A DNA stretch of 64,000 nucleotides. Origin: Candidatus Kerfeldbacteria bacterium (lineage in GTDB: Bacteria; Patescibacteriota; Patescibacteriia; SBBC01). Under the pieces are notes generated by a model that was given only the letters and a program-made list of their open reading frames with translations, was not told where the DNA came from and did no database searches. Positions 24,348 through 35,194 of this stretch are shown piece after piece. Each line of letters begins with the position of its first letter. Within the stretch, counting starts at the first letter, position 1. Position numbers and translations under genes: made by a program. Location: contig JAZDNT010000003.1 of assembly GCA_043799405.1 (NCBI GenBank), positions 79,461 to 143,460 on the forward strand. The letters are read 5' to 3'.

Positions 24348-25880
24348 TTACCGCTTATAGAAATCAGCTGGAAAGTCCATTTTTATTGCCCGCAAATGCT
24401 CGACGAGCATCGGGTGGACCTTCTTCACCTGCTCGTACATATCGTACACGAGAGCTCGATACGAGAAGTGACCGCCGGACTTCGAGCGAAGCTCGACGAA
24501 ATGGTGCAGTTCCCGTAGGTTCATCTTGAACAGCGTCCGCTTTTTGTAACCGAGCGGGATCAGGTACGTCGAGTCGTCAGGAAGATCTTTGCCGATTGTC
24601 TCGACTGCGTGCGCAGCCTTTTTCATCGCTTCGTCGAATGTCGGCAGTAATCCTGCATCCTCGAGGTCGCGAGGTATCTCGTAACCATGGTCGATGCCGA
24701 GCGGCTGGTTTATCTGCGTCAATATACGATGCCGCTGCAAGTCGCGGAACGCGCCGTAGTCAAAGAGAATGTCGAAAATGAATCCGCCGGGAACTTCAAA
24801 GTGCCGTGTTACCCAGTCGCGTTCCCCGCGCCTCGATTGCACTGCGCTGATGATCTCCCTCTTCTTCGCATTATCACATTTCGAGACTGCGTGTACAATC
24901 TCGCGGAACGGCGCGCGCGATCCACTATAGAGGATCGTTGCTATAAGCTCGTCCTCGGGGCTTATGCGCTCAACAATGTAGTCAGCGCGCGGCTGGGCAG
25001 CGCCCTTCGGCTCCATGACGCCCAACTCCTTCGCGTACCGCGCTCCGATCGCAGCAACGCCATCGAAGTACGGCTTCGGCTCAGTGTGTTTCACGAGCGT
25101 CGGCGCGCCCTCGATCTGCAATTTCAGCGATTCCTGCAACGCTGATGCCTCGTCAGGCGCCTTTTCAGCAAGCGATTCAAGGAGCGGCTGTATCTTCGCG
25201 CGGTGCGGATTGTACGCCGGGTTCACGGCAGCGGCTTCAACGTCGTTCCCGATGTCACGGACCTCCTGGAAAGGGTGTCCTTTCATTTTTGAGATAGCGT
25301 GCCGGAGCGCCCGGGCGCTCATGATCATGCCGAAGTTCGTGAGCGTGCCGGCAGGCAGCAGGTAACGCGCGACGTCAAGCGACCGCGCCTTGAGCTTCGC
25401 CGCATACATCTTGTCAGTAAGGTCAGTAGGCTTCGGGTAGCGAGCGCGGTAGTACTCGATCATGCCGGCGAGAACTTTCTCGTAGGTCGTAAAAAGCATG
25501 TCTGCGGTCGAAATATATAGGTCGGCATGCTTTGAGGCCATAACCGCCACAGGACGGTAGTAGCTCGACGAATCGAACTGGACGTACCGCGTTGACTTTT
25601 CCTGGTACGAGGCGATCCGGTTGTCCTCGAGCACCTTCGACGCAAGAATTGACACGTTCTCGACGGCAATAGCGACCACGGCTATGTCCGCGACCGAAGA
25701 GTCGCCGTACCCCAAAACCCACTTCTCATGGAACTCGGCGGACTTCTCCTCGGTCAGCTCATCGATCGTCTCCTTGATCGATCTTGAAGACCGCGAGTAC
25801 TTCGCCATGGCCACTGCGAGTACCTCCGGTGGCAGGCCGACGATGGAGAATATCTCACGTTTTCGCGTTGGTGTACTCAT
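24348..25880 (-). CDS. thyX: FAD-dependent thymidylate synthase, long two-lobed form
   Basis: 510 aa. The C-terminal lobe has FRDLQRHRILTQ and ELRSKSGGHFSYR. The N-terminal lobe has ASYQEKSTRY. Confidence 0.88.
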   Translation of the reverse strand: MSTPTRKREIFSIVGLPPEVLAVAMAKYSRSSRSIKETIDELTEEKSAEFHEKWVLGYGDSSVADIAVVAIAVENVSILASKVLEDNRIASYQEKSTRYVQFDSSSYYRPVAVMASKHADLYISTADMLFTTYEKVLAGMIEYYRARYPKPTDLTDKMYAAKLKARSLDVARYLLPAGTLTNFGMIMSARALRHAISKMKGHPFQEVRDIGNDVEAAAVNPAYNPHRAKIQPLLESLAEKAPDEASALQESLKLQIEGAPTLVKHTEPKPYFDGVAAIGARYAKELGVMEPKGAAQPRADYIVERISPEDELIATILYSGSRAPFREIVHAVSKCDNAKKREIISAVQSRRGERDWVTRHFEVPGGFIFDILFDYGAFRDLQRHRILTQINQPLGIDHGYEIPRDLEDAGLLPTFDEAMKKAAHAVETIGKDLPDDSTYLIPLGYKKRTLFKMNLRELHHFVELRSKSGGHFSYRALVYDMYEQVKKVHPMLVEHLRAIKMDFPADFYKR

Positions 25881-26494
25881 ATCGATAAAAATTTCTGCAG
25901 TGATTGTTGAACATCAGCTCGTACTTCATCAAATGACTTACTCGCATCAATCCGAACATACGGAAATTTCACTGTTCGTACGAGTTGAGTAAAGCCTTCC
26001 CGAACACGACGATGAAATGCCAAAGTTTTAACATCAATCCGGTTAAATAAACCGGTTCCGAACCTTCGTGTAATACCGACCTTCGGATCAATATCAAGCC
26101 AAATTAAAAGATCAGGATCAGGAAAACCAGCTGCCAGAATCAACTGCATGAATGCGTTTATGTCTGTGCGTTTCATCGATGCCCACCACTGATACGCAAA
26201 CGTATCCATCCAGTAGCGATCGGAGAAAACATGCTTCCCGAGTTTCGTCGACGGCGCAACGACTGTGTTGATATGTTCGGCACGGTCGGCGAAAAATAGA
26301 AACAGTTCCGCTTCTGGTGTTGGATCCAGCTCATGACGATCCAACAGGATATCTCGAATCGCCGCGCCGACCGGTGTACCGCCGGGTTCACGCGTAAAAA
26401 TGGCTTCGGGATAACTTTTTTTCAGAAACGTAAACAGAGAGGTTTTCCCGCTCCCTTCGCCTCCCGATACCGCAATGAATTTCCCTTTCCTCAT
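25877..26494 (-). CDS. tmk: dTMP kinase
   Basis: 205 aa. FIAVSGGEGSGKTS, TREPGGT, DRY. ATGA overlaps at both ends. Confidence 0.93.
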   Translation of the reverse strand: MRKGKFIAVSGGEGSGKTSLFTFLKKSYPEAIFTREPGGTPVGAAIRDILLDRHELDPTPEAELFLFFADRAEHINTVVAPSTKLGKHVFSDRYWMDTFAYQWWASMKRTDINAFMQLILAAGFPDPDLLIWLDIDPKVGITRRFGTGLFNRIDVKTLAFHRRVREGFTQLVRTVKFPYVRIDASKSFDEVRADVQQSLQKFLSI

Positions 26495-27066
26495 TTTTTT
26501 TGCACTAGTCGTATTTGCCGCATCACTACATCAATCTTTTTATACAGCTCCCTTGTGCTTCCGACGTTGTCAATCCGGTAATCTGCCTGCCGTCCGATCT
26601 TGGGAATCTCTCGCTCGTGCGGCAACGATTCGATCCGACGGAACTCTGAAAGGCTCACGCGATCATCAATTCGTTCATTCCGTCCGTACGCCCGTTTCCA
26701 GCGGTATTCCATCGGGGCGGTGACGTACAGTAAACGGAAGTTTTTCAGTCGTTTTAACAGCCGGAGCTCGCCGAACTCCCGAACCCCATCAACAATGACC
26801 ACCTTCGCTCGCTTCTGTTGCCGAACCTGCTTCAAAACCGCCCGAGCTATCACGTCGAGACCAAAGGTGTTACGCAATGCTTCGGCCAATCGGCCTTGAA
26901 CTCGATGATCCCGCCAATTCAGATCAAGCAGCTCAAGAATGACATTCAGTACGTTTTCTGAAAAAACAATGAAGGGGTATCCATAATTCCGAGCGATATA
27001 CCGGCCAACCACGGCTTTGCCGCTGCTCTTCTCGCCCACAATGCCGAGGATGAGCGGGGGCTGCAT
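26491..27066 (-). CDS. small P-loop nucleotide kinase (dNMP-kinase / dephospho-CoA-kinase-like), substrate unknown
   Basis: 191 aa. Walker A GIVGEKSSGKA. VIVDGVR. Translationally coupled to dcd and tmk. Confidence 0.6.
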   Translation of the reverse strand: MQPPLILGIVGEKSSGKAVVGRYIARNYGYPFIVFSENVLNVILELLDLNWRDHRVQGRLAEALRNTFGLDVIARAVLKQVRQQKRAKVVIVDGVREFGELRLLKRLKNFRLLYVTAPMEYRWKRAYGRNERIDDRVSLSEFRRIESLPHEREIPKIGRQADYRIDNVGSTRELYKKIDVVMRQIRLVQKK

Positions 27067-27623
27067 TACTCGAAGTTCTTATGGATCTTTGACGCCTGCG
27101 GTTCTGTGCTGCCGTAGTACTTGTGGGTCGTTTTGCCGTACGGCTTCTCCGCCGACGAGGTGAGCACATGGTAGGACATCTGGGCGATCGGCATGCGGTA
27201 GTACAGCTTTATCGGGAGCGGCGAGATGTTCGAGAGCTCGAGCGTCGGATTGAGCGAATTTCCCGGATCGATGTACCCCGCGGTCGCATGGATGATGAGG
27301 CCGATACGCCCGAGGCTGCTCTTGCCTTCGAGCCGGCCGACGATGTTATCGGGGAAACTGGTCCTTTCGACGGTCACTCCGAGGGCGAACTGGTTCGGGT
27401 GGATGATGAAGGGTTCGTCATCGCCGATCTCAACGCGGTGCATCAGCTCAGCAACGGGCTTCTTTACATCAATCTCAGTGAACCTGCCCGTATCGAAGAC
27501 GAGGAATATCTTTCCGAGGTGCAGATCGACCGAAGCAGGCTGAATCGCATTCGGGAACAGTGGATCGATGGAAATGCGCTTTTCGTCAAGTGCTTTTTTG
27601 ATGTCAACATCAGAAAGAATCAT
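27066..27623 (-). CDS. dcd: dCTP deaminase
   Basis: 185 aa. MILSDVDIKKAL...IDPL, SVDLHLG, GRLEGKSSLGRIGL. Confidence 0.93.
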   Translation of the reverse strand: MILSDVDIKKALDEKRISIDPLFPNAIQPASVDLHLGKIFLVFDTGRFTEIDVKKPVAELMHRVEIGDDEPFIIHPNQFALGVTVERTSFPDNIVGRLEGKSSLGRIGLIIHATAGYIDPGNSLNPTLELSNISPLPIKLYYRMPIAQMSYHVLTSSAEKPYGKTTHKYYGSTEPQASKIHKNFE

Positions 27624-27640
27624 GATCGTGATGCTAATGA

Positions 27641-28333
27641 TTATTTCGCTGAACGCGGATCGACGCTCACCGAAGGCCCCATGGTCGAGGTGAGCGAAAC
27701 GCTTTGAAGATACGTCCCCTTTGCTTCTGCAGGCTTCGCCTTATTGACGGCTTCGATCATCGCCGTAACGTTCTCGACAAGCTTCTGGTCCTCGAACGAG
27801 ACCTTGCCCACAACGACATGGACGTTGCTTCCGGTATCGTTGCGGAAGGCGATCTTGCCCGTATTAAGGTCGGTAACCACGGCTGCCGGATTCGGATTAA
27901 CCGTCTCGTTCTTCGGATTCGGCATCAAACCCCGCTGGCCGAGGATCTTCGCGATCGGCGACAGCTGCTTCATCATATCCGGGGCCGCTACGGCGATATC
28001 AAAATCCGTTACCCCCTTCTCCTTAATCTGTTTCACGAATTCCTCCCCGCCGACTAGAGCTGCGCCGGCTTTCTTCGCTTCGTCGGCGGCCTTGCCGTTC
28101 GCGAACACGGCGATCCGGAGTTTCTTGCCAGTGCCATGCGGGAGTTTTACCGTTCCACGAACGCCCTGGTCGGCCTTTGAAGCGTCGATGCCGAGATGAA
28201 AGTGCAGCTCGACCGACGCGTCGAACTTTACGGTTGATGTCTTCTTTACGAGTGCGACCGCGTCCGCGACGCGGTAACGTATCGCAGTATCGACCGAACC
28301 GGTCGCTGCGCGATATCGTTTACTGTGTGCCAT
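27641..28333 (-). CDS. rplA: 50S ribosomal protein L1
   Basis: 230 aa. MAHSKRY..., GTVKLPHGTGK, AAPDMM. Confidence 0.96.
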   Translation of the reverse strand: MAHSKRYRAATGSVDTAIRYRVADAVALVKKTSTVKFDASVELHFHLGIDASKADQGVRGTVKLPHGTGKKLRIAVFANGKAADEAKKAGAALVGGEEFVKQIKEKGVTDFDIAVAAPDMMKQLSPIAKILGQRGLMPNPKNETVNPNPAAVVTDLNTGKIAFRNDTGSNVHVVVGKVSFEDQKLVENVTAMIEAVNKAKPAEAKGTYLQSVSLTSTMGPSVSVDPRSAK

Positions 28334-28492
28334 AATTCTCCTTTTCCGGCGGAGCCGGATCCGGCTTTGCCGGACGTGGTGCGAACCTCCGCTTGCGCCC
28401 CTACGGAGCTACAGCGGACAAGCTCACCTGAAGCTTGTCTGCCGAAGCTCAAAAGAGCAAAGGCAGAGTCCCACAAAATTAATAATTGCTGT
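28334..28492 (-). promoter_or_regulatory. structured 159-nt leader upstream of rplA (candidate r-protein autoregulatory leader)
   Basis: Minus-strand hairpins: TCTGCC..GCTCttttGAGC..GGCAGA; GACAAGCTtcaggtgAGCTTGTC; CCGGCaaaGCCGG; CCGGCtccGCCGG. These are followed by AAGGAG and the ATG. Confidence 0.4.
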
Positions 28493-29479
28493 TTATACGC
28501 TGGCCGTCGGATTGGCCGGTGCTTTCGGCGTTTCTTCTGCGGTTTCCCTTCGGATCGTGATGAAGTGGTACAGGAACAACGGCGCGGTGACCAAGATGAT
28601 CGGGATCAAAGTCGAGAGATCGGTCTGCGCACTGTTGCTTCCACCACCCATAGTGGTCTTCCGGTAGGCATCGTAGTCGACGAGCCACTGTTCGGCCAGC
28701 GCCTTGTCCTCGACCGTGAATGCGCACTTGTCGGTGCAGTTGATGACGCTCTTCACACCGTTCTGTTCATACGCAACGTCGACCATCGCGGGCGATGAAG
28801 TGCTCGAACCTTTCTGCAGGCCCATCACATTCTTCAGACCGAGGTTAATGAGGAGCGCGCCGGAGACGACGACGCCGACCAGGCCCGTGAACGCGACCAG
28901 GTAGAAGTAGCACGAACGCAGCGGACCCGATTTCACCATACCCTCGGCGCGGGCTTTCCGCTGCTCACGCTGCACCATGCGGATGAAGAACCACCAGAAC
29001 AGCGGGATCGCGACGATCAGGAACGAGAACGCATTGACGATGGTGCGCTTCTGGTAGGTCGTAAAGGCGCCGGTCGTCGTGTTGTTGTCCCTCCACGAGG
29101 CATAGTCATTCTTCCATGCGGAAAGGGTACCCTTATCGACGGCATTGAACTGACACGAATCGGTGCACGCATACGCCGCGCCCGGTCCCTCGGCGGTCTT
29201 CTCGACCGAGAGGGTGAGTACCGGCGGGATGCCCGATACGGCCGATGACTCGGCTTTCGTGAATACCCACGCGCGTAACCCTTCCTGTAGGAGGAACGCC
29301 GACGCGGCCACGATGATGAGGAGCATGACGAGCGATACCGCGTATGAGAACGCGGAACGTACCGCGCCTCCCTTGCCAGCTGCCTTCGACTCGGCAACGA
29401 TCGCCATGATGAAGAACAGGATAATCCCGATGATGGCGACCGGGCTCAAAAACCCCATAAACATGCCGATGGTCCCCAT
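28493..29479 (-). CDS. multi-pass membrane protein with internal duplication
   Basis: 328 aa. Two TM-bundle halves, each followed by a Cys motif (CTDSCQFNAVDKGTLSAWKNDYASWR and CTDKCAFTVEDKALAEQWLVDYDAYR). Confidence 0.65.
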   Translation of the reverse strand: MGTIGMFMGFLSPVAIIGIILFFIMAIVAESKAAGKGGAVRSAFSYAVSLVMLLIIVAASAFLLQEGLRAWVFTKAESSAVSGIPPVLTLSVEKTAEGPGAAYACTDSCQFNAVDKGTLSAWKNDYASWRDNNTTTGAFTTYQKRTIVNAFSFLIVAIPLFWWFFIRMVQREQRKARAEGMVKSGPLRSCYFYLVAFTGLVGVVVSGALLINLGLKNVMGLQKGSSTSSPAMVDVAYEQNGVKSVINCTDKCAFTVEDKALAEQWLVDYDAYRKTTMGGGSNSAQTDLSTLIPIILVTAPLFLYHFITIRRETAEETPKAPANPTASV

Positions 29480-29483
29480 AGTG

Positions 29484-29524
29484 TTATCCCTCTATGGTAA
29501 TGCCCATGTTCCAGGCAGTACCCT
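29484..29524 (-). pseudogene. remnant of the rplK 3' end (12 codons plus stop)
   Basis: Reads GTAWNMGITIEG-stop, against L11 [13 protein letters not shown]-stop. The 22-nt core 29503-29524 matches 31896-31917 at 21/22 positions. An in-frame TAG lies just upstream. Confidence 0.75.
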
Positions 29525-29631
29525 AAAAAAATGCTTACAGTACCTTCACAGACTACCAAAGCCACGAGAAATTGGCAATGTGAACGGATTTTTACTCACG
29601 TAATAATCGACTTCCTAATACACTTAATTAA

Positions 29632-31842
29632 TCATAATCCCCGCCAACCAGATGATGGCGTGCATACCATCAACCAAGATTCAAAGACTGTCATCCGTCC
29701 ATATTCAGACGCTTCGTCACAATCACCATCTATGGGCATGGTGGTGGTGGGGATTTGAATGTAACCATCTGCTACCTGTAGTCTGCTCTTAGGATTGGTG
29801 GTATTGATACCAACATTACCGTCGTTGCCAATGGTCATCCAAAAGGCTCCGCCATCATATGACCGGAAATTTATCTTCCCCGCAGGATTCCCGCTCGTTG
29901 TATTCCAAAAATTGAAATCTGTACCTCCATTACCATTCGTATCAGCAGAAATGTGTGGATTCCAATTCCCAAATGCTAAAGCACCAGTATTTTGCGGAAT
30001 AATCAGCTTTTCGATCCGCGCCCAGCCAGCTACGTCCAAAAAATATTGCGGGTCGGTAGTGTTGATTCCAATACCTGATCCGTTTTGGTAAAGACCGGAG
30101 TTCTGGATCGATGTGCTGCCGTTAAATCTGGAAATATACCCATAGGTTGTGCCTCCGGTTCCACTGCCGCTGACTGAAGCTGGAAGAGTTGCGCACGAGA
30201 GAGAACTACCGACTCCACTCACATATTGACCAGCCGGGCAAGCTGCGGGAAACGTCGTCAGCCGCGGCCACGGCACGTTACCGCCAGTGAGAGTTCCGGC
30301 CCAGTTAACATCGCTTCCAAACGACGCCGCACCGGTGGCATTCATAGTCCCAGCCACGTCGAGCTTGGCTCCAGGGCTTGTCGTCCCAATGCCGACATTA
30401 CCGTTATCAAAAATCGAAGAGTTAGTAATTGTGGTGCCAGCAGTGAACTTTGCCAGGTAATTGTTTGTGCCGCTCCCCCCGATAAAAGTCGGTACTCCAG
30501 TCAATCGCGGCCACGGCACCGAACCTGCCAGCAACGACCCGCTCCATCCTACATCACCGTTGACATCGAGTTTATATGCCGGGCTCGTCGTCCCGATACC
30601 GACGTTGCCTGCCAAATAGTTTATTCCACTACCAGTTTGGTAAATACCATAAGTCCCCGCACTTGCTGTTTTTATATATAGCCCGTAGTTATGAATTCCG
30701 ACAGTAGCAGTGTTATCAAAATATCCTGCATAAGTATAACCGTATCCGCTTGGTACGCCTGCCGCAGTAGCCTCTCCTTTTACACCAATCGCCGTGCCAG
30801 CTCCATTTATTTCTGCCTGGTTCCCAATACCATATACACCAATACCTGGACCCCTGCCCGTATCATATACGATACCATTTGCTGTTCCTTTTACAGCAAC
30901 ATTTCCACCATAGCCGATATTGTGTGCGGCAGTTGCATCAATAGCAATAGTACTGACAGTATCATTGGCGCTCTGCTGAGTAACAACGAGACCCTTCAGT
31001 GTTGGTGATGCGCCAGTTGCTGCGCCGTTACTTCTGTTAATATATAATCCAATTGGTCTTGTTGAACTTAGATCATTAACTTCCAACATAGCACCAGGAT
31101 TCGTCGTCCCAATGCCGACGTTGCCACTGGGATCAATCCGCATGCGCTCGATCAAATTATTCGTCCGGAAGATCCAGGCGGAATCTTCAGAAACATCAAC
31201 GAATTCCAATCCTCTGGTCGTTGACATAATGATGTTTCGCTTTCCGGAGGGCCCTCCATTGATCAGATCGATCAAGGGCGAATTTCCTTGGCCGGTATTG
31301 CGAGGAGTGAGAACGATAGTGTTGGCACCGGTGCCGACTTCGGTCCCTCGGTTATCGTCCGCCTGTATGGACAGTTTGTTATTCGGCGCTGTTGTGCCAA
31401 TCCCGACGTTGCCATTGTCGAAAATTGAAGAGTTGCCAATGGTCGTGCCAGCAGTGAATCTTGCCAGGTAATTGCCTGTTCCGCTTCCGCCGATAAAAGT
31501 CGGTACTCCGGTCAGCCGTGCCCACGGTACTGCCCCAGCTAATAATGATCCGCTCCATCGAACATCGCCCACGACATCAAGCTTCGCCGCCGGCGTCACT
31601 GTGCCAATGCCGACGTTGTCAGTGATCGTGTCCAACTGAACGACTGACCCGAGTTTCAGCCAACCATAGGGATTACCACTGGCACCGGTATCTTCTGCAA
31701 GCATTTTCATTGGCATTGCAACAACTCGGGTAACGCCAATAAGAAAAAACACTGCATACACAACAATTACCACCATCCTTAATTGTCGGTGTGGATAAGT
31801 CCTGGGCTTTAAAGAAAAGCCTGAATCATTCGAATTTTCCAT
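29632..31842 (-). CDS. large membrane-anchored surface protein with phage tail-fibre-like NVGIGTT repeats
   Basis: 736 aa. N-terminal TM helix. At least 6 occurrences of GNVGIGTT(S/N/A)P..KL(D/S/E)V. Two about 65-aa modules (LLAG.VPW.RLTGVPTFIGGSGT.NYLA.FTAGTTI.NSSIFDNGNVGIGTT). Confidence 0.7.
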   Translation of the reverse strand: MENSNDSGFSLKPRTYPHRQLRMVVIVVYAVFFLIGVTRVVAMPMKMLAEDTGASGNPYGWLKLGSVVQLDTITDNVGIGTVTPAAKLDVVGDVRWSGSLLAGAVPWARLTGVPTFIGGSGTGNYLARFTAGTTIGNSSIFDNGNVGIGTTAPNNKLSIQADDNRGTEVGTGANTIVLTPRNTGQGNSPLIDLINGGPSGKRNIIMSTTRGLEFVDVSEDSAWIFRTNNLIERMRIDPSGNVGIGTTNPGAMLEVNDLSSTRPIGLYINRSNGAATGASPTLKGLVVTQQSANDTVSTIAIDATAAHNIGYGGNVAVKGTANGIVYDTGRGPGIGVYGIGNQAEINGAGTAIGVKGEATAAGVPSGYGYTYAGYFDNTATVGIHNYGLYIKTASAGTYGIYQTGSGINYLAGNVGIGTTSPAYKLDVNGDVGWSGSLLAGSVPWPRLTGVPTFIGGSGTNNYLAKFTAGTTITNSSIFDNGNVGIGTTSPGAKLDVAGTMNATGAASFGSDVNWAGTLTGGNVPWPRLTTFPAACPAGQYVSGVGSSLSCATLPASVSGSGTGGTTYGYISRFNGSTSIQNSGLYQNGSGIGINTTDPQYFLDVAGWARIEKLIIPQNTGALAFGNWNPHISADTNGNGGTDFNFWNTTSGNPAGKINFRSYDGGAFWMTIGNDGNVGINTTNPKSRLQVADGYIQIPTTTMPIDGDCDEASEYGRMTVFESWLMVCTPSSGWRGL
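30383..30575 (-). repeat. intragenic module repeat, copy 1
   Basis: An about 190-nt segment roughly 80% identical by eye to 31394-31586, at an offset of 1011 nt (337 codons). Confidence 0.7.
31394..31586 (-). repeat. intragenic module repeat, copy 2
   Basis: Partner of 30383-30575. Confidence 0.7.
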
Positions 31843-31876
31843 AGGATTGGGATCCTTTCAACCCAACCCTACCCCC

Positions 31877-32302
31877 CTACTCTTCCACGGTCAACCCCAT
31901 GTTCCGGGCAGTACCCTCAATGATACGCATGGCGCCTTCAATGTCCTTTGCATTGAGATCGGGCATTTTCTTCTCGGCGATCGCCTTTATCTGCGCTCTT
32001 GTAACCTTGCCGACCTTGTTCCGTAGCGGATCGCCGCTCCCCTTTTCGATACCGACCGCCTTTTTCAGAAGCTCCGCTGCTGGCGGCGTTTTCAGTATAA
32101 ATGTATAGGTCCGGTCTTCGAACACGGTCAGTTCGACCGGCGTTACTTCTCCCATACGATCCTTTGTCTTATCGTTGAACTGCTTTACGAACTGCGCGAT
32201 GTTAAGGCCATGCGGCCCGAGCGCGGTTCCGACCGGCGGAGCCGGAGTCGCCTGTCCGCCAGTTATCTGTAGCTTGATGACTGTCTTGATCTTCTTTGCC
32301 AT
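31877..32302 (-). CDS. rplK: 50S ribosomal protein L11
   Basis: 141 aa. [32 protein letters not shown]. Confidence 0.97.
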
Positions 32303-32319
32303 AGTGTGATTGGGAACAA

Positions 32320-32384
32320 TTGACTATTGACTTGTGACAATTGACTGCGGGTGAAATTGTCAAATGTCAAACGTCACATGTCAA
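32320..32384. repeat. heptad-periodic inverted array: 4x TTGAC then 4x GTCAA
   Basis: TTGACta TTGACtt GTGACaa TTGAC (32320-32345), a 13-nt spacer, then GTCAAat GTCAAac GTCACat GTCAA (32359-32384). The arms pair at 20 of 26 positions. Confidence 0.8.
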
Positions 32385-32394
32385 AAGTTAACTA

Positions 32395-32940
32395 TTAAAT
32401 TTTCTTAACCTGCAAAAAGTCCAGTTCAACCGGCGTCTCGCGGCCGAACATGGATACGAGCACCTTGATCTTGCCGCGGGCTTCGTCGAGTTCGCTGACC
32501 TTGCCCTCGAAGTCCTTGAACGGACCGTCGATGATGCGGACCGGGGAACCGACCTGTACGTCGATCTTGTACTTCGGCTCCTCGACGCCCATCCGCTTCT
32601 GCAACGCTTTGACCTCTTCATCGGAGATCGGCGTCGGCGTCGTACCAGAACCGACGAATCCAGTGACGTTCGGGGTATTTCGAACGACGTACCACGAGTC
32701 GTCCGTCACGATCATCTCGACCAGTACGTACCCGGGGAAGATCTTCTCGGTTACCACCTTGCGCTTGCCGTTCTTGATCCGGATCTTGTTCTCGGTCGGG
32801 ATCAGCACCATGAAGATCTTGTCCTCCATGTCCATCGACTCGATGCGCTGCCGGAGGTTACGCGAAACGTTCTCCTCATACCCGGAGTAGGTATGGAGCA
32901 CGTACCAGCGTCGTCCCTGTTGCTGTGTCTGCTTTGGCAT
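32395..32940 (-). CDS. nusG: transcription termination/antitermination factor NusG
   Basis: 181 aa. RRWYVLHTYSGYE. KOW motif VGSPVRIIDGPFKDFEGKV. Confidence 0.96.
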   Translation of the reverse strand: MPKQTQQQGRRWYVLHTYSGYEENVSRNLRQRIESMDMEDKIFMVLIPTENKIRIKNGKRKVVTEKIFPGYVLVEMIVTDDSWYVVRNTPNVTGFVGSGTTPTPISDEEVKALQKRMGVEEPKYKIDVQVGSPVRIIDGPFKDFEGKVSELDEARGKIKVLVSMFGRETPVELDFLQVKKI

Positions 32941-32946
32941 AGTGTA

Positions 32947-33135
32947 TTACCTGACGAGTATCTTCTCGATCCCGTAGTTCATAGCGAGATCGACGAGTCC
33001 GAGGAATACGGCAACGAAGAGGCTGATCGCCACGACCAAAACCGTATGGTTGACGGTCTGCTTTCGCGAAGGCCAGACGACCTTCCGAAGCTCATCCTTA
33101 GCTTCTCGTATGTAGGAAGAAATGCGGTTTGCCAT
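32947..33135 (-). CDS. secE: preprotein translocase subunit SecE
   Basis: 62 aa. VVWPSRKQTVNHTVLVVAISLFVAVFLGLVD. Confidence 0.9.
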   Translation of the reverse strand: MANRISSYIREAKDELRKVVWPSRKQTVNHTVLVVAISLFVAVFLGLVDLAMNYGIEKILVR

Positions 33136-33181
33136 GCTCTTTCGACTCTTAAAAGACCCCCGGAGGGGCGTTACTAAAGGA

Positions 33182-33211
33182 ACTGTACCGTATCGATTGT
33201 ATCTGTGTCAA
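33182..33211 (-). promoter_or_regulatory. candidate secE-nusG-rplK promoter TTGACA-18-TACAGT
   Basis: Read on the minus strand, about 45 nt upstream of the secE ATG. Confidence 0.4.
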
Positions 33212-33319
33212 GTGCCGGAAATCCGCTACTTGACGCGACGGGGGCTGTATGAGAAGGTAGCCCCGTTCTGGAGGTTCCTGCTTCACCAATCGGTCCACCC
33301 GCAAGGAGGAGGTTGCCCG

Positions 33320-33904
33320 ATGTACAGAAGTCTGAAGTTATTGCTCGTCTGCATACTGTTCGCTGCGACCATCTGTACGGTCAACCGTGCATTCGCACAG
33401 CTGCCGTACGTCACGTCGAACGACGCGAAGCCTGCGCCTCGTCCTGACTCGAGTGTGACGACTGTCTCTATCGTCGGCATGCCGCGGACTGATACGATCT
33501 ACGTGTTCATCAAGGACAAGCTGACGAACAAGATCGCCGTCCACGAGCATTACGAGATCAAGGACAATATCGAGCTCCCGTGCCGACGGATGTTTGACAT
33601 CGGCTCCTGGAGCGATCTCGTCACCGAGAGAGTGGGCGCCACGTCGTACTCCTATGGCACCGGCATCTGGACCTCGTTCAGGAGCATCCCCGCTGGCAAC
33701 ATCCGGCTCGTGCTCCACGTCCGTAATGGAACGACCAAGGAAGTAACGCCGCTTCAGAAGCAGCCGAAGGCGCCGAAACAGAATGCTTCGCCTGCACAAC
33801 CCGCACCGTCCGACACGACGACGCACACGTCGTTCAACCAGGCACAGGTCGACCACCCGCATGCAGCACGCGGGTGGTTCACTCTGCATAATTATCGTCG
33901 CTAG
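33320..33904 (+). CDS. secreted hypothetical protein
   Basis: 194 aa from ATG 33320, with AAGGAGGAGG upstream; the ORF opens at 33122. Signal peptide MYRSLKLLLVCILFAATICTVNRAFA. Confidence 0.65.
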   Translation: MYRSLKLLLVCILFAATICTVNRAFAQLPYVTSNDAKPAPRPDSSVTTVSIVGMPRTDTIYVFIKDKLTNKIAVHEHYEIKDNIELPCRRMFDIGSWSDLVTERVGATSYSYGTGIWTSFRSIPAGNIRLVLHVRNGTTKEVTPLQKQPKAPKQNASPAQPAPSDTTTHTSFNQAQVDHPHAARGWFTLHNYRR

Positions 33905-33921
33905 GAAGCGAACGTATCCCG

Positions 33922-33948
33922 ATGTGCGCGACCTTTGGTCGCGCACAT
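33922..33948 (+). terminator. hairpin after the secreted-protein gene
   Basis: Perfect 12-bp arms ATGTGCGCGACC / GGTCGCGCACAT around TTT. No T-run follows. Confidence 0.4.
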
Positions 33949-34052
33949 GTAAATATCAGTCGCGAGGAAACGACGACGATCAGGGTGTCCGAAGGACGGG
34001 CCCCTAGTGGAGCCGCGACGAGCGACACCATGCAAGGGAAGAAGAGGTATCG

Positions 34053-34081
34053 GAAGAAGGAACCGTTCAGGTTCCTTCTCC
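34053..34081 (-). terminator. hairpin after the ABC permease gene
   Basis: GGAAGAAGGAACC gttca GGTTCCTTCTCC. The minus strand is followed by a C/T-rich tract. Confidence 0.4.
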
Positions 34082-34087
34082 GAACTT

Positions 34088-35194
34088 CTACACCCTTCGT
34101 TCTTCGAACCTGAACGTGAACATTGCGAGGGTCACGAGAACGACCGACCACCCGATCATCCAGTACAAATCATGCGCGATCACCGAGATGCCCGAACCGT
34201 TCGCCATGACCTCGCGTAACCCGTGCGTCAGGTACTGCAAGGGCAGATACTGCACGATGTGCTGAAGCCAGTTCGGCATGCCGTCGGTCGGGAAAAAGGT
34301 ACCGCCGAGGAACAGCATCGGAAACACGATGAGGTTCGCGATAGCTGGGACCGATTCAACGGTGTTCGCAAATCCAGAGATAGTGAACCCAAGCCCCAGA
34401 AACATGATGCTACCGAGGATCGCGATCAATGCGATGAGCCAGATCGAGCCGTATACGTGCGTATGCAACAGCCAGACACCGACCGCGATCAGGATCGCGG
34501 TCTGCGCAAGCGCTACAAGGAGCCGCGTGATGACCTGCGCAGTCACGAACTGCTGCGGCTTCATCGGTGTCGCGAGAAGGCGCTTCAGAATCCCCTTCTC
34601 CTTGTAGTCCGCGAATACGAACGCGACGGAAAAGACCGCCATCTGCATCAGCGCCATACCGACGATGCCGGGGAGCAGGAAGTCGATGTACTTCGTGCTC
34701 CTGACACTCACTTCCTCGGTCTTGAGTTCGAACAATTGCGGCGCGCGCGCCATAGCAATTGTCGTCTTGTCGAGGATCTGGCTCATGATCGACTCTGCGG
34801 TCTTCGCCTGCTGCAGCTGACCGACGTTCTCGAGAACGGTCACCGTCTGTGTCGCCGGGGTTACCGATGATGCTCCGGGGGCCGGAATGAGGTTGTCAGG
34901 GATCACGAATACAGCGGCAACGCTATTTTTCTTCATCGCGTCGCGAAGCTGCTGCTCCGTTCCGAACGTCATGCTCATGTTCGGTGCCTGTTTCAGCTGG
35001 TCGATGAACGCCGTCGTCTCTGGAGTTGGGTTCGGGCTCACGATGCCGAGCTTCGTCGTCGGGACCTTGTCAAAACCGACAAAGCCGAAGATGACCATGA
35101 TCATGAGCGGCATGAACAGCGTGAAGAAGAGCGACTGCCGGTTCCGAACGAACATCTTCATTGCTGATAGTGTGAGGGTCTTTATGGTGCTCAT
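34088..35194 (-). CDS. ABC-2 type transporter permease
   Basis: 368 aa. One N-terminal TM helix, a large extracytoplasmic loop, then 5 C-terminal TM helices. Adjacent to the ATPase gene. Confidence 0.85.
   Translation of the reverse strand: MSTIKTLTLSAMKMFVRNRQSLFFTLFMPLMIMVIFGFVGFDKVPTTKLGIVSPNPTPETTAFIDQLKQAPNMSMTFGTEQQLRDAMKKNSVAAVFVIPDNLIPAPGASSVTPATQTVTVLENVGQLQQAKTAESIMSQILDKTTIAMARAPQLFELKTEEVSVRSTKYIDFLLPGIVGMALMQMAVFSVAFVFADYKEKGILKRLLATPMKPQQFVTAQVITRLLVALAQTAILIAVGVWLLHTHVYGSIWLIALIAILGSIMFLGLGFTISGFANTVESVPAIANLIVFPMLFLGGTFFPTDGMPNWLQHIVQYLPLQYLTHGLREVMANGSGISVIAHDLYWMIGWSVVLVTLAMFTFRFEERRV

Follow-up and report, generated by a model that had tools for sequence, protein, structure and literature searches.

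We analyzed a 64-kb window, the whole stretch of DNA under study, from a metagenome-assembled genome (MAG) of Candidatus Kerfeldbacteria. Our focus was the 3' end of rplK, the gene for ribosomal protein L11, where a gene for a 736-aa protein lies between rplK and a displaced second copy of the rplK end. On the minus strand the gene order is secE (33135-32947), nusG (32940-32395), rplK (32302-31877), the 736-aa open reading frame, the rplK-like fragment, a DUF5671 gene and rplA, and the genes past rplA on the same strand are dcd, a kinase gene, tmk and thyX. Labels of the form Lnnn denote related loci or viral contigs that we compared with the window. The features of the junction are as follows.

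31877..32302, minus strand: rplK (ribosomal protein L11, 141 aa), intact, with both Pfam L11 domains full-length and a replaced C-terminal tail, ...NMGLTVEE-stop.
31877..31917, minus strand: upstream repeat copy (attL-like), made of the 22-nt core (31896-31917) and the replacement tail with its TAG stop (31877-31895).
31841..31872, minus strand: 11-bp hairpin directly after the new rplK stop, covering the first two bases of the AUG of the 736-aa gene.
29632..31842, minus strand: 736-aa gene (the cargo), encoding a repeat protein with an N-terminal hydrophobic anchor and fiber-like repeats.
29579..29631, minus strand: 53-nt AT-rich spacer 3' of the stop of the 736-aa gene; a clear counterpart in relatives was not found.
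29525..29578, minus strand: conserved, promoter-like arm that adjoins the remnant and was aligned with L328, L318, L320, L324 and L327.
29484..29524, minus strand: downstream repeat copy (attR-like), a remnant of the native rplK end that matches the native ends of L329 and L333.
28493..29479, minus strand: DUF5671 membrane protein gene (328 aa; Pfam DUF5671, E 4.9e-17), 4 nt past the remnant stop, as in unoccupied relatives.
27641..28333, minus strand: rplA (ribosomal protein L1; Pfam Ribosomal_L1, E 4.4e-60), in synteny with L002.

The last 41 nt of rplK (31877-31917) recur on the minus strand at 29484-29524, with 31 of the 41 positions identical in register to the stop codon. A first-pass annotation of this DNA had described a displaced copy of the rplK 3' end that is cut off upstream by an in-frame TAG, and our analysis confirmed it: the 22-nt core of the repeat (GGTACTGCCCGGAACATGGG; 29503-29524 vs 31896-31917) matches at 21 of 22 positions. 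A search of the window for the 22-mer AGGGTACTGCCYGGAACATGGG with up to 3 mismatches returned these two sites only, and the pair was seen in 0 of 100 shuffles. An independent run of a repeat finder recovered the same pair as family D6 (29491-29527 vs 31884-31920, 81% identical, spacing 2393). The 39-nt remnant (29484-29522, minus strand) translates to GTAWNMGITIEG-stop and is directly preceded by the TAG (29523-29525), to which the extra 2 nt of the 41-nt repeat belong. Between the remnant stop and the next ATG lie 4 nt (CACT), one fewer than the annotation had counted. The insert is flanked by direct repeats made of the 3' end of its target gene, the arrangement that characterizes a 3'-end integrative element.

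The mismatches between the two copies are unevenly distributed, with 1 in the 22 positions of the core vs 9 in the 19 positions of the tail (Fisher p = 0.0025), and the longest exact word common to both is 11 nt. Except for an R to W change, the differences are synonymous or are I/L, V/I and E/G variants that occur among orthologues. The cores of the two copies are more alike (21/22) than the core of the functional copy and that of any orthologue compared (16-19/22). This likeness, together with the clustering of the mismatches, is the pattern expected if a crossover within the core joined two different molecules, and we read the copies as diverged orthologous rplK ends and not as a duplicate followed by decay.

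Direct repeats would also flank the insert if the rplK end had been duplicated in tandem in situ, for example as a long target-site duplication, and the non-functional copy had then decayed. We consider this extremely improbable. The mismatches would not be expected to cluster as they do, the remnant's ITIEG-TAA and 4-nt spacer are those of the native ends of relatives and not a decayed LTVEE, and the corresponding copies in two further loci (L003 and L031, described below) differ by synonymous changes only, including six-fold codon switches; moreover, neither inverted repeats nor a transposase were found. A transposon or insertion sequence with target-site duplication was rejected on similar grounds, since the insert has no terminal inverted repeats and no transposase domain, and the 10 differences among the 41 positions of its copies follow an orthologue-like pattern.

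The annotation had predicted an empty site in which rplK is followed directly by the 328-aa DUF5671 gene. Such sites were found in relatives, where rplK, 2-5 nt, the DUF5671 gene and then rplA follow one another without an insert (L004 and others are alike). The native L11 tails and spacers are listed below.

L329: tail ...NMGITIEG-TAA, 4 nt to DUF5671.
L333: tail ITIEG, 5 nt to DUF5671.
L332: tail ITVER, 3 nt to DUF5671.
L001: tail IIIEG-TAA, 5 nt (CCACT) to DUF5671.
L334: tail LTVEE, 4 nt to DUF5671.
L335: tail LTVEE, 2 nt to DUF5671.

The remnant of the window (…GGCATTACCATAGAGGGATAA-CACT-ATG) is collinear with these native rplK-DUF5671 junctions, which bears out the earlier proposal that it still occupies the original junction, and the gene order on both sides of the insert is that of L002. 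The event was therefore an insertion in the lineage of the window and not a deletion elsewhere. We are highly confident that the region is an insertion scar and that its downstream copy is the native L11 end. The 5' leader of the DUF5671 gene now consists of the remnant, which includes a Shine-Dalgarno-like GAGGG 8 nt before the ATG; relatives hold equivalent bases within the last rplK codons, suggesting that the remnant persists because it carries the ribosome-binding site of DUF5671. L11 was left full length by an end that appears to be supplied by the element. This LTVE-type tail is native in L002, L334 and L335, and it accompanies scars in the close relatives L318, L320, L324, L327 and L328. 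The hairpin that follows the new stop (31841-31872) folds at -18.1 kcal/mol (z -3.0), and an equally stable fold was obtained in 0 of 200 shuffles. An Rfam scan of 27000-35000 gave no relevant match.

The 44-nt spacer of L002 was considered as a scar and rejected; it has no recognizable remnant or arm, and, as with L334 and L335, L002 is best taken for a native locus of the LTVEE type. Loci in which rplA is not next to rplK (L029, L037, L054, L056, L058, L078 and L083) were likewise rejected as insertions, as they have a different operon layout with housekeeping genes.

The window derives from a MAG, and a mis-join of two strains at the conserved rplK sequence could in principle have produced the junction. 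Such an assembly chimera is very improbable: the copies share no exact word longer than 11 nt, the L002 gene order continues on both sides, and the scar architecture occurs in independent assemblies from ENA, JGI, Logan and NCBI (L328, L318-L327, L003 and L031). In addition, the remnant has W in place of an invariant R, and is therefore not simply the functional gene of another strain.

At least five related loci (L328, L318, L320, L324/L325 and L327) carry the replacement tail, an arm of about 55 nt and the remnant, without the 736-aa gene. In close relatives with the LTVE-stop tail the distance between rplK and DUF5671 is 99-173 nt, vs 2-5 nt at empty sites. L328, whose rplK is the most similar to that of the window (96%), reads LTVE-TAG, a 55-nt segment, GGTACTGCCCGGAACATGGACATTACCATAGAGGGATAA (GTARNMDITIEG-stop), TTCGT and ATG; L318, L320, L324/L325 and L327 share this layout; their stop is followed by an additional 46-73 bases, and their remnant is more decayed. 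In an alignment of six loci (A1), the arm is conserved as TTGCCAA-N10-CTYTGGTAG…GGTACTGTGAGCATT…, and in the window it consists of TTGCCA (29573-29578), a 17-nt spacer ending in TGG, and TAGTCT (29550-29555). The motifs suggest that the arm is a promoter facing outward toward DUF5671. A consensus promoter scan of the window did not flag the arm, and we attribute this to its -10 element, which matches the consensus at only 3 of 6 positions. Within the arm there is also a second GAAGGTACTG half-copy. No support was obtained for a conserved RNA structure of the arm and remnant leader, as the covariation term was unfavorable for the six sequences.

Beyond this skeleton, the window holds only the 736-aa gene and its flanks of 34 nt (before) and 53 nt (after). 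The annotation had stated that the repeats bracket the 736-aa gene alone; the 54-nt conserved arm (29525-29578) lies between them too. It had also taken the repeats as evidence for the arrival of the 736-aa gene, a claim that is not supported in that form: relatives without the gene have the same scar structure, so the repeats cannot prove that the gene came by that event.

Comparison of the flanking genes revealed that the DUF5671 gene between rplK and rplA is hypervariable and appears to be frequently exchanged between lineages. Scarred and native loci are interspersed across near-identical genomes: L327 (scar) and L329 (native) are 96% identical in L11, 92% in L1 and 82% in DUF5671, and L318 and L327 are 99% identical in L11 and 96% in L1, but only 49% in DUF5671. 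The DUF5671 protein of the window is 85-86% identical to those of L318 and L324, whereas its L1 is only 74% identical to that of L318 (the L324 contig has no rplA). Altogether, at least three DUF5671 allele types occur among genomes with L11 proteins at least 90% identical (examples are L318:6588-7568, L327:6565-7563, L329:4062-5054 and L328:623-745). The spacer and remnant follow the local DUF5671 allele, with CACT/CCACT in one group, CCGT in another and TTCGT in L328, and the arm goes together with the LTVE tail. Only 2 of 39 positions separate the remnants of the window and L328, even though DNA identity between the two rplK genes is 85%; coding constraint therefore acted on each remnant until recently, and this likeness argues for recent, separate events. 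The simplest reading of these comparisons is that related tail-plus-arm modules were acquired several times separately.

The 736-aa protein has no Pfam domain, and neither an integrase nor a transposase domain was found in it. It has a hydrophobic segment at residues 23-41, an N-terminal membrane anchor, and internal repeats. The composition of its gene is foreign, with a GC content at third codon positions (GC3) of 0.455 vs 0.65-0.81 for most neighboring genes. Short local matches (E ~1e-6 to 1e-9 against phage genomes and PDB) were obtained to tail-fiber PHROGs and to phage fiber and endosialidase-chaperone genes, and a PDB sequence search gave one match, the Bdellovibrio fiber adhesin Bd2133. 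The protein is a member of a very large family that spans Candidate Phyla Radiation (CPR) bacteria, DPANN archaea and other groups. Close homologues were not found, the best being 41% identical over half its length, and a pattern search of IMG/VR found no relative. Searches for exact matches to the L11, DUF5671 and 736-aa proteins of the window returned no recorded contig. The label 'tail-fiber-like' given to it by the annotation holds for this short local repeat similarity and for nothing beyond it, and the N-terminal anchor speaks against the label. Its identity as a phage tail fiber is not established, given the short local matches, the anchor and the ribosomal genes next to it. Short repeat modules are what the protein has in common with phage tail fibers and the mosaic fiber adhesin Bd2133 (PDB 8ond; PMC10769870); it differs from them in the purely local nature of the similarity, the membrane anchor, a context without virion genes, and the lack of the C-terminal chaperone domain that is found in many homologues. 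From its sequence, a fiber-like surface protein is a fair description of the product.

Whether this gene arrived as cargo of the same event or later bears on how the scar is read. In a two-event scenario, a cargo-less scar such as that of L328 would have formed first, and an unrelated mechanism would later have placed the 736-aa gene in the spacer that separates the arm from the rplK stop, so that the repeats would carry no information on its arrival. The closest relative, L328, has exactly such a scar with only the 55-nt arm between its copies, and L318, L320, L324 and L327 have 141-173 nt there and no gene. Against this, the near-intact remnant of the window (one change) suggests a young scar and the unameliorated cargo is young too; two rare events at one 50-nt spot within a short time would be less parsimonious, and a second insertion is not marked by terminal inverted repeats, a target duplication or a transposase. 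L003 also demonstrates that such scars can contain genes. We therefore regard the two-event scenario as rather unlikely, and lean, by a modest degree, toward the 736-aa gene being cargo of the same event.

The same architecture was found outside the close relatives. In L003 (L003:843-2700; rplK 70% identical), two AT-rich genes (321 and 118 aa) lie between rplK and a second RNMGIEVEG-stop just before DUF5671, and all 4 differences between the copies within the homology are synonymous. In L031 (L031:523-1200), a 75-nt double-hairpin insert is followed by GTARSMGIKVE-stop before rplA; here codon switches (CGT/AGA and TCG/AGC) distinguish the copies, which are identical over at most 11 consecutive nt. 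Within the set made up of the window and 83 related loci, two L11-tail motifs were found only in the window, L003 and L031. At one more locus, L038 (1371-3021), we observed a PD40 beta-propeller gene and an rve-type transposase following rplK.

We scanned IMG/VR with a degenerate pattern for GTAR(N/Q/S)MG-coding cores and obtained 231 stretches, nearly all of them chance matches; only L099 and L149 were informative, and L243 possibly so. The viral contig L099/L116 encodes a 308-aa tyrosine integrase (L099:12445-13371; PF00589, E 1.6e-22; phrog_1), and about 365 nt downstream of the integrase gene lies a truncated mimic of the rplK end with a stop, followed by a hairpin and a terminator (region L099:12445-13800, on the same contig as L116:4001-5400). 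The mimic is flanked by a tail-protein gene and by genes for an exonuclease, an HNH endonuclease and a DnaD-like loader. It is likely an attP that imitates the rplK end, in the classical integrase-attP arrangement. The only named relative of the integrase is from a Patescibacteria MAG (50% identity). The viral contig L149, which requires genetic code 25 for translation, carries a full rplK with an unusual 18-residue extension after NMG, and a convergent large serine recombinase gene (PF00239 and PF07508) and phage-like genes adjoin the rplK 3' end (287-2235, reversed locus); the probable reading of L149 is a prophage that occupies the rplK end in a host of Gracilibacteria or Absconditabacteria type. 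The third viral contig, L243 (reversed, 1-1820), starts inside rplK and continues into capsid-like genes, and may represent one more border of a prophage at rplK, in a host of high GC. L099/L116 and L149 come from other lineages, and neither is the element of the window. The viral mimic beside a tyrosine integrase makes plausible the part of the first-pass proposal in which a circular DNA carrying a copy of the rplK end integrated at this site; the insert itself has no integrase.

Taken together, the evidence leads us to favor, with moderate confidence, integrase-mediated integration into the rplK 3' end, of which the locus would be a leftover, either a remnant resembling a cis-mobilizable element (CIME) or a non-autonomous module. 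In this proposal, mobile DNA in Patescibacteria uses the final ~40 nt of rplK as a site of attachment. An element that arrived with a mimic of the rplK end would have recombined with the chromosome inside the 22-nt core, the crossover being made by an integrase that acted in trans or has since been lost. L11 would have received a new tail (LTVEE-stop) and the hairpin from the element, and the native tail (ITIEG-stop) would have been displaced 2.4 kb downstream, where it may have been kept for the ribosome-binding site of DUF5671. The outward promoter-like motif of the element-derived arm would keep DUF5671 and rplA expressed. The integrase-less leftover could be a decayed element with both att-like ends, as in a CIME, or a non-autonomous mini-element, and its most likely cargo would be the 736-aa membrane-anchored, fiber-like protein.

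Several results weigh against this proposal. Neither the 64-kb window nor the DNA up to 5 kb from rplK in the 83 related loci gave a significant match in a tblastn search with the L099/L116 tyrosine and L149 serine integrases. No viral contig in IMG/VR carried the conserved arm or an LTVE-type mimic, the arm scan returning chance matches with at most 21 of 57 downstream identities, and a complete parent element with the arm or the tail was not seen there. Among the scar loci, the stretches that directly follow the new stop (the left arms) have no similarity to one another. The five related scars have only 55-173 nt between their copies, and with no complete parent at hand the 736-aa gene could be a later, unrelated insertion. 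Lastly, the length of the core (22 nt) is roughly sufficient for RecA-type recombination, and the need for an integrase is therefore not strict.

The last point opens an alternative without any integrase, in which the scar allele, with or without cargo, spreads among related Kerfeldbacteria by DNA uptake and homologous recombination, the first duplication having come from homology-facilitated illegitimate recombination. The flanks of the insert (left, the rplK body; right, the remnant) match one contiguous stretch of naive rplK, and therefore a double crossover, or a single crossover of a circularized fragment, would install the tail, cargo, arm and remnant in an intact rplK. The failure to find an integrase in the window or near the 83 related rplK loci is in line with this route, as are the 21/22 identity of the core and the clear exchange of DUF5671 alleles between lineages (L318 vs L327; window vs L318). 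A remnant and spacer that match the recipient allele, with a tail and arm that match the donor, fit it as well as they fit the integrase model. However, the copies of L031 are continuously identical over 11 nt only, which is not enough for efficient homologous recombination; in the window, L031 and L003, three independent lineages, the left edge of the homology lies within ~9 nt, with 426 nt of rplK available; and integrase-linked DNA that targets exactly the rplK end exists. Site-specific and homologous recombination are indistinguishable from sequence alone, and in view of these points we consider the homologous route unlikely.

A broader reading is that a family of integrase-less miniature modules, made of the rplK tail mimic and the outward promoter arm with or without cargo, uses the rplK 3' end as a landing pad in Kerfeldbacteria and other Patescibacteria. 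Both flanks of such a module are homologous to one contiguous stretch of intact rplK, which would make it self-portable through an integrase in trans or through uptake and recombination. We put this forward as a tentative idea that we consider unlikely.

The locus can be compared with known systems. Streptococcal ICEs (integrative and conjugative elements) and IMEs (integrative, mobilizable elements) integrate in the 3' ends of rplL, rpsI and rpmG, where 12-54 bp repeats contain the gene end (PMC4701971). Site-specific insertion into the 3' end of a ribosomal protein gene that is kept intact is common to those elements and the reading proposed here, whereas the streptococcal elements carry a tyrosine integrase and conjugation or mobilization genes (PMC4701971) that the insert of the window lacks. 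The window also differs in its rplK target, its Patescibacterium host, its diverged repeats (31/41), and a content of one surface-protein gene and a promoter-like arm. CIMEs are decayed integrated elements that keep attL and attR and have lost their integration and transfer genes (PMC5704250). The window likewise appears to retain both att-like ends without integration and transfer genes, and its relatives have even smaller versions; the difference is that the complete parent element of the scar was not seen. With no integrase inside, the locus does not qualify as a complete integrative element. The papers that we searched included none that names rplK as an attachment site.

Temperate phages and genomic islands integrate in the 3' ends of tRNA and tmRNA genes, and their attP carries a replacement 3' end. 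Target restoration is common to these integrators and the window, and so is an attP that adjoins the integrase gene, as seems to be the case in L099/L116. In the window, by contrast, the target is the end of a protein-coding gene, and the replacement tail changes four L11 residues. Inserting into the 3' end of a conserved gene while restoring that end is a textbook mechanism, and the value of the present case therefore lies in a new target and phylum and not in a new principle; new here are the rplK target, the phylum and an unusually small, polymorphic skeleton.

To our knowledge, little is known about gene gain in the small-genome, uncultured Patescibacteria. Repeated use of the L11 gene end as an integration site would constitute a concrete and checkable route of gene gain, for which scars in several lineages, the putative phage attP mimic and the probable serine-integrase prophage provide the basis. 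If the broader module reading is correct, such modules could deliver surface genes, the fiber-like protein among them, into a highly conserved and highly expressed operon of tiny symbionts. A membrane-anchored fiber-like protein could mediate host attachment in an episymbiont. The duplicated L11 tail would also be a simple marker for mobile DNA in Patescibacteria genomes.

We made additional observations in the surrounding operon. The nusG-rplK spacer (32307-32386) contains an array of TTGACA/GTCAAT-like motifs with a 27-nt imperfect inverted repeat and short tandem repeats, and overlaps the best promoter-like site of the consensus scan; the motifs may be the promoter or leader of the L11 operon. 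The corresponding spacer of L327 (L327:5624-6001) is 376 nt long, vs ~75 nt in near-identical relatives, a second length polymorphism in the operon. In many bacteria a tRNA-Trp gene lies upstream of secE; ARAGORN found no tRNA or tmRNA gene over the whole 64-kb window, including that position. A non-coding stretch of ~60 nt upstream of secE (33967-34029) is conserved with L002 in all three reading frames, and its conservation is therefore at the DNA level. This stretch is not a tRNA, has no Rfam match and does not encode L33, and at its position other relatives have a TTGACA promoter-like site.

Further along the minus strand, the thymidylate kinase gene (25877-26494) has a GC3 of 0.42, as low as that of the 736-aa gene, vs 0.58-0.74 for its neighbors, and may be another recent replacement. 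The ThyX-like protein (24348-25880) is 510 aa long and has two Thy1 stretches, which identify it as a duplicated or fused form; the versions in relatives are 509-514 aa long.

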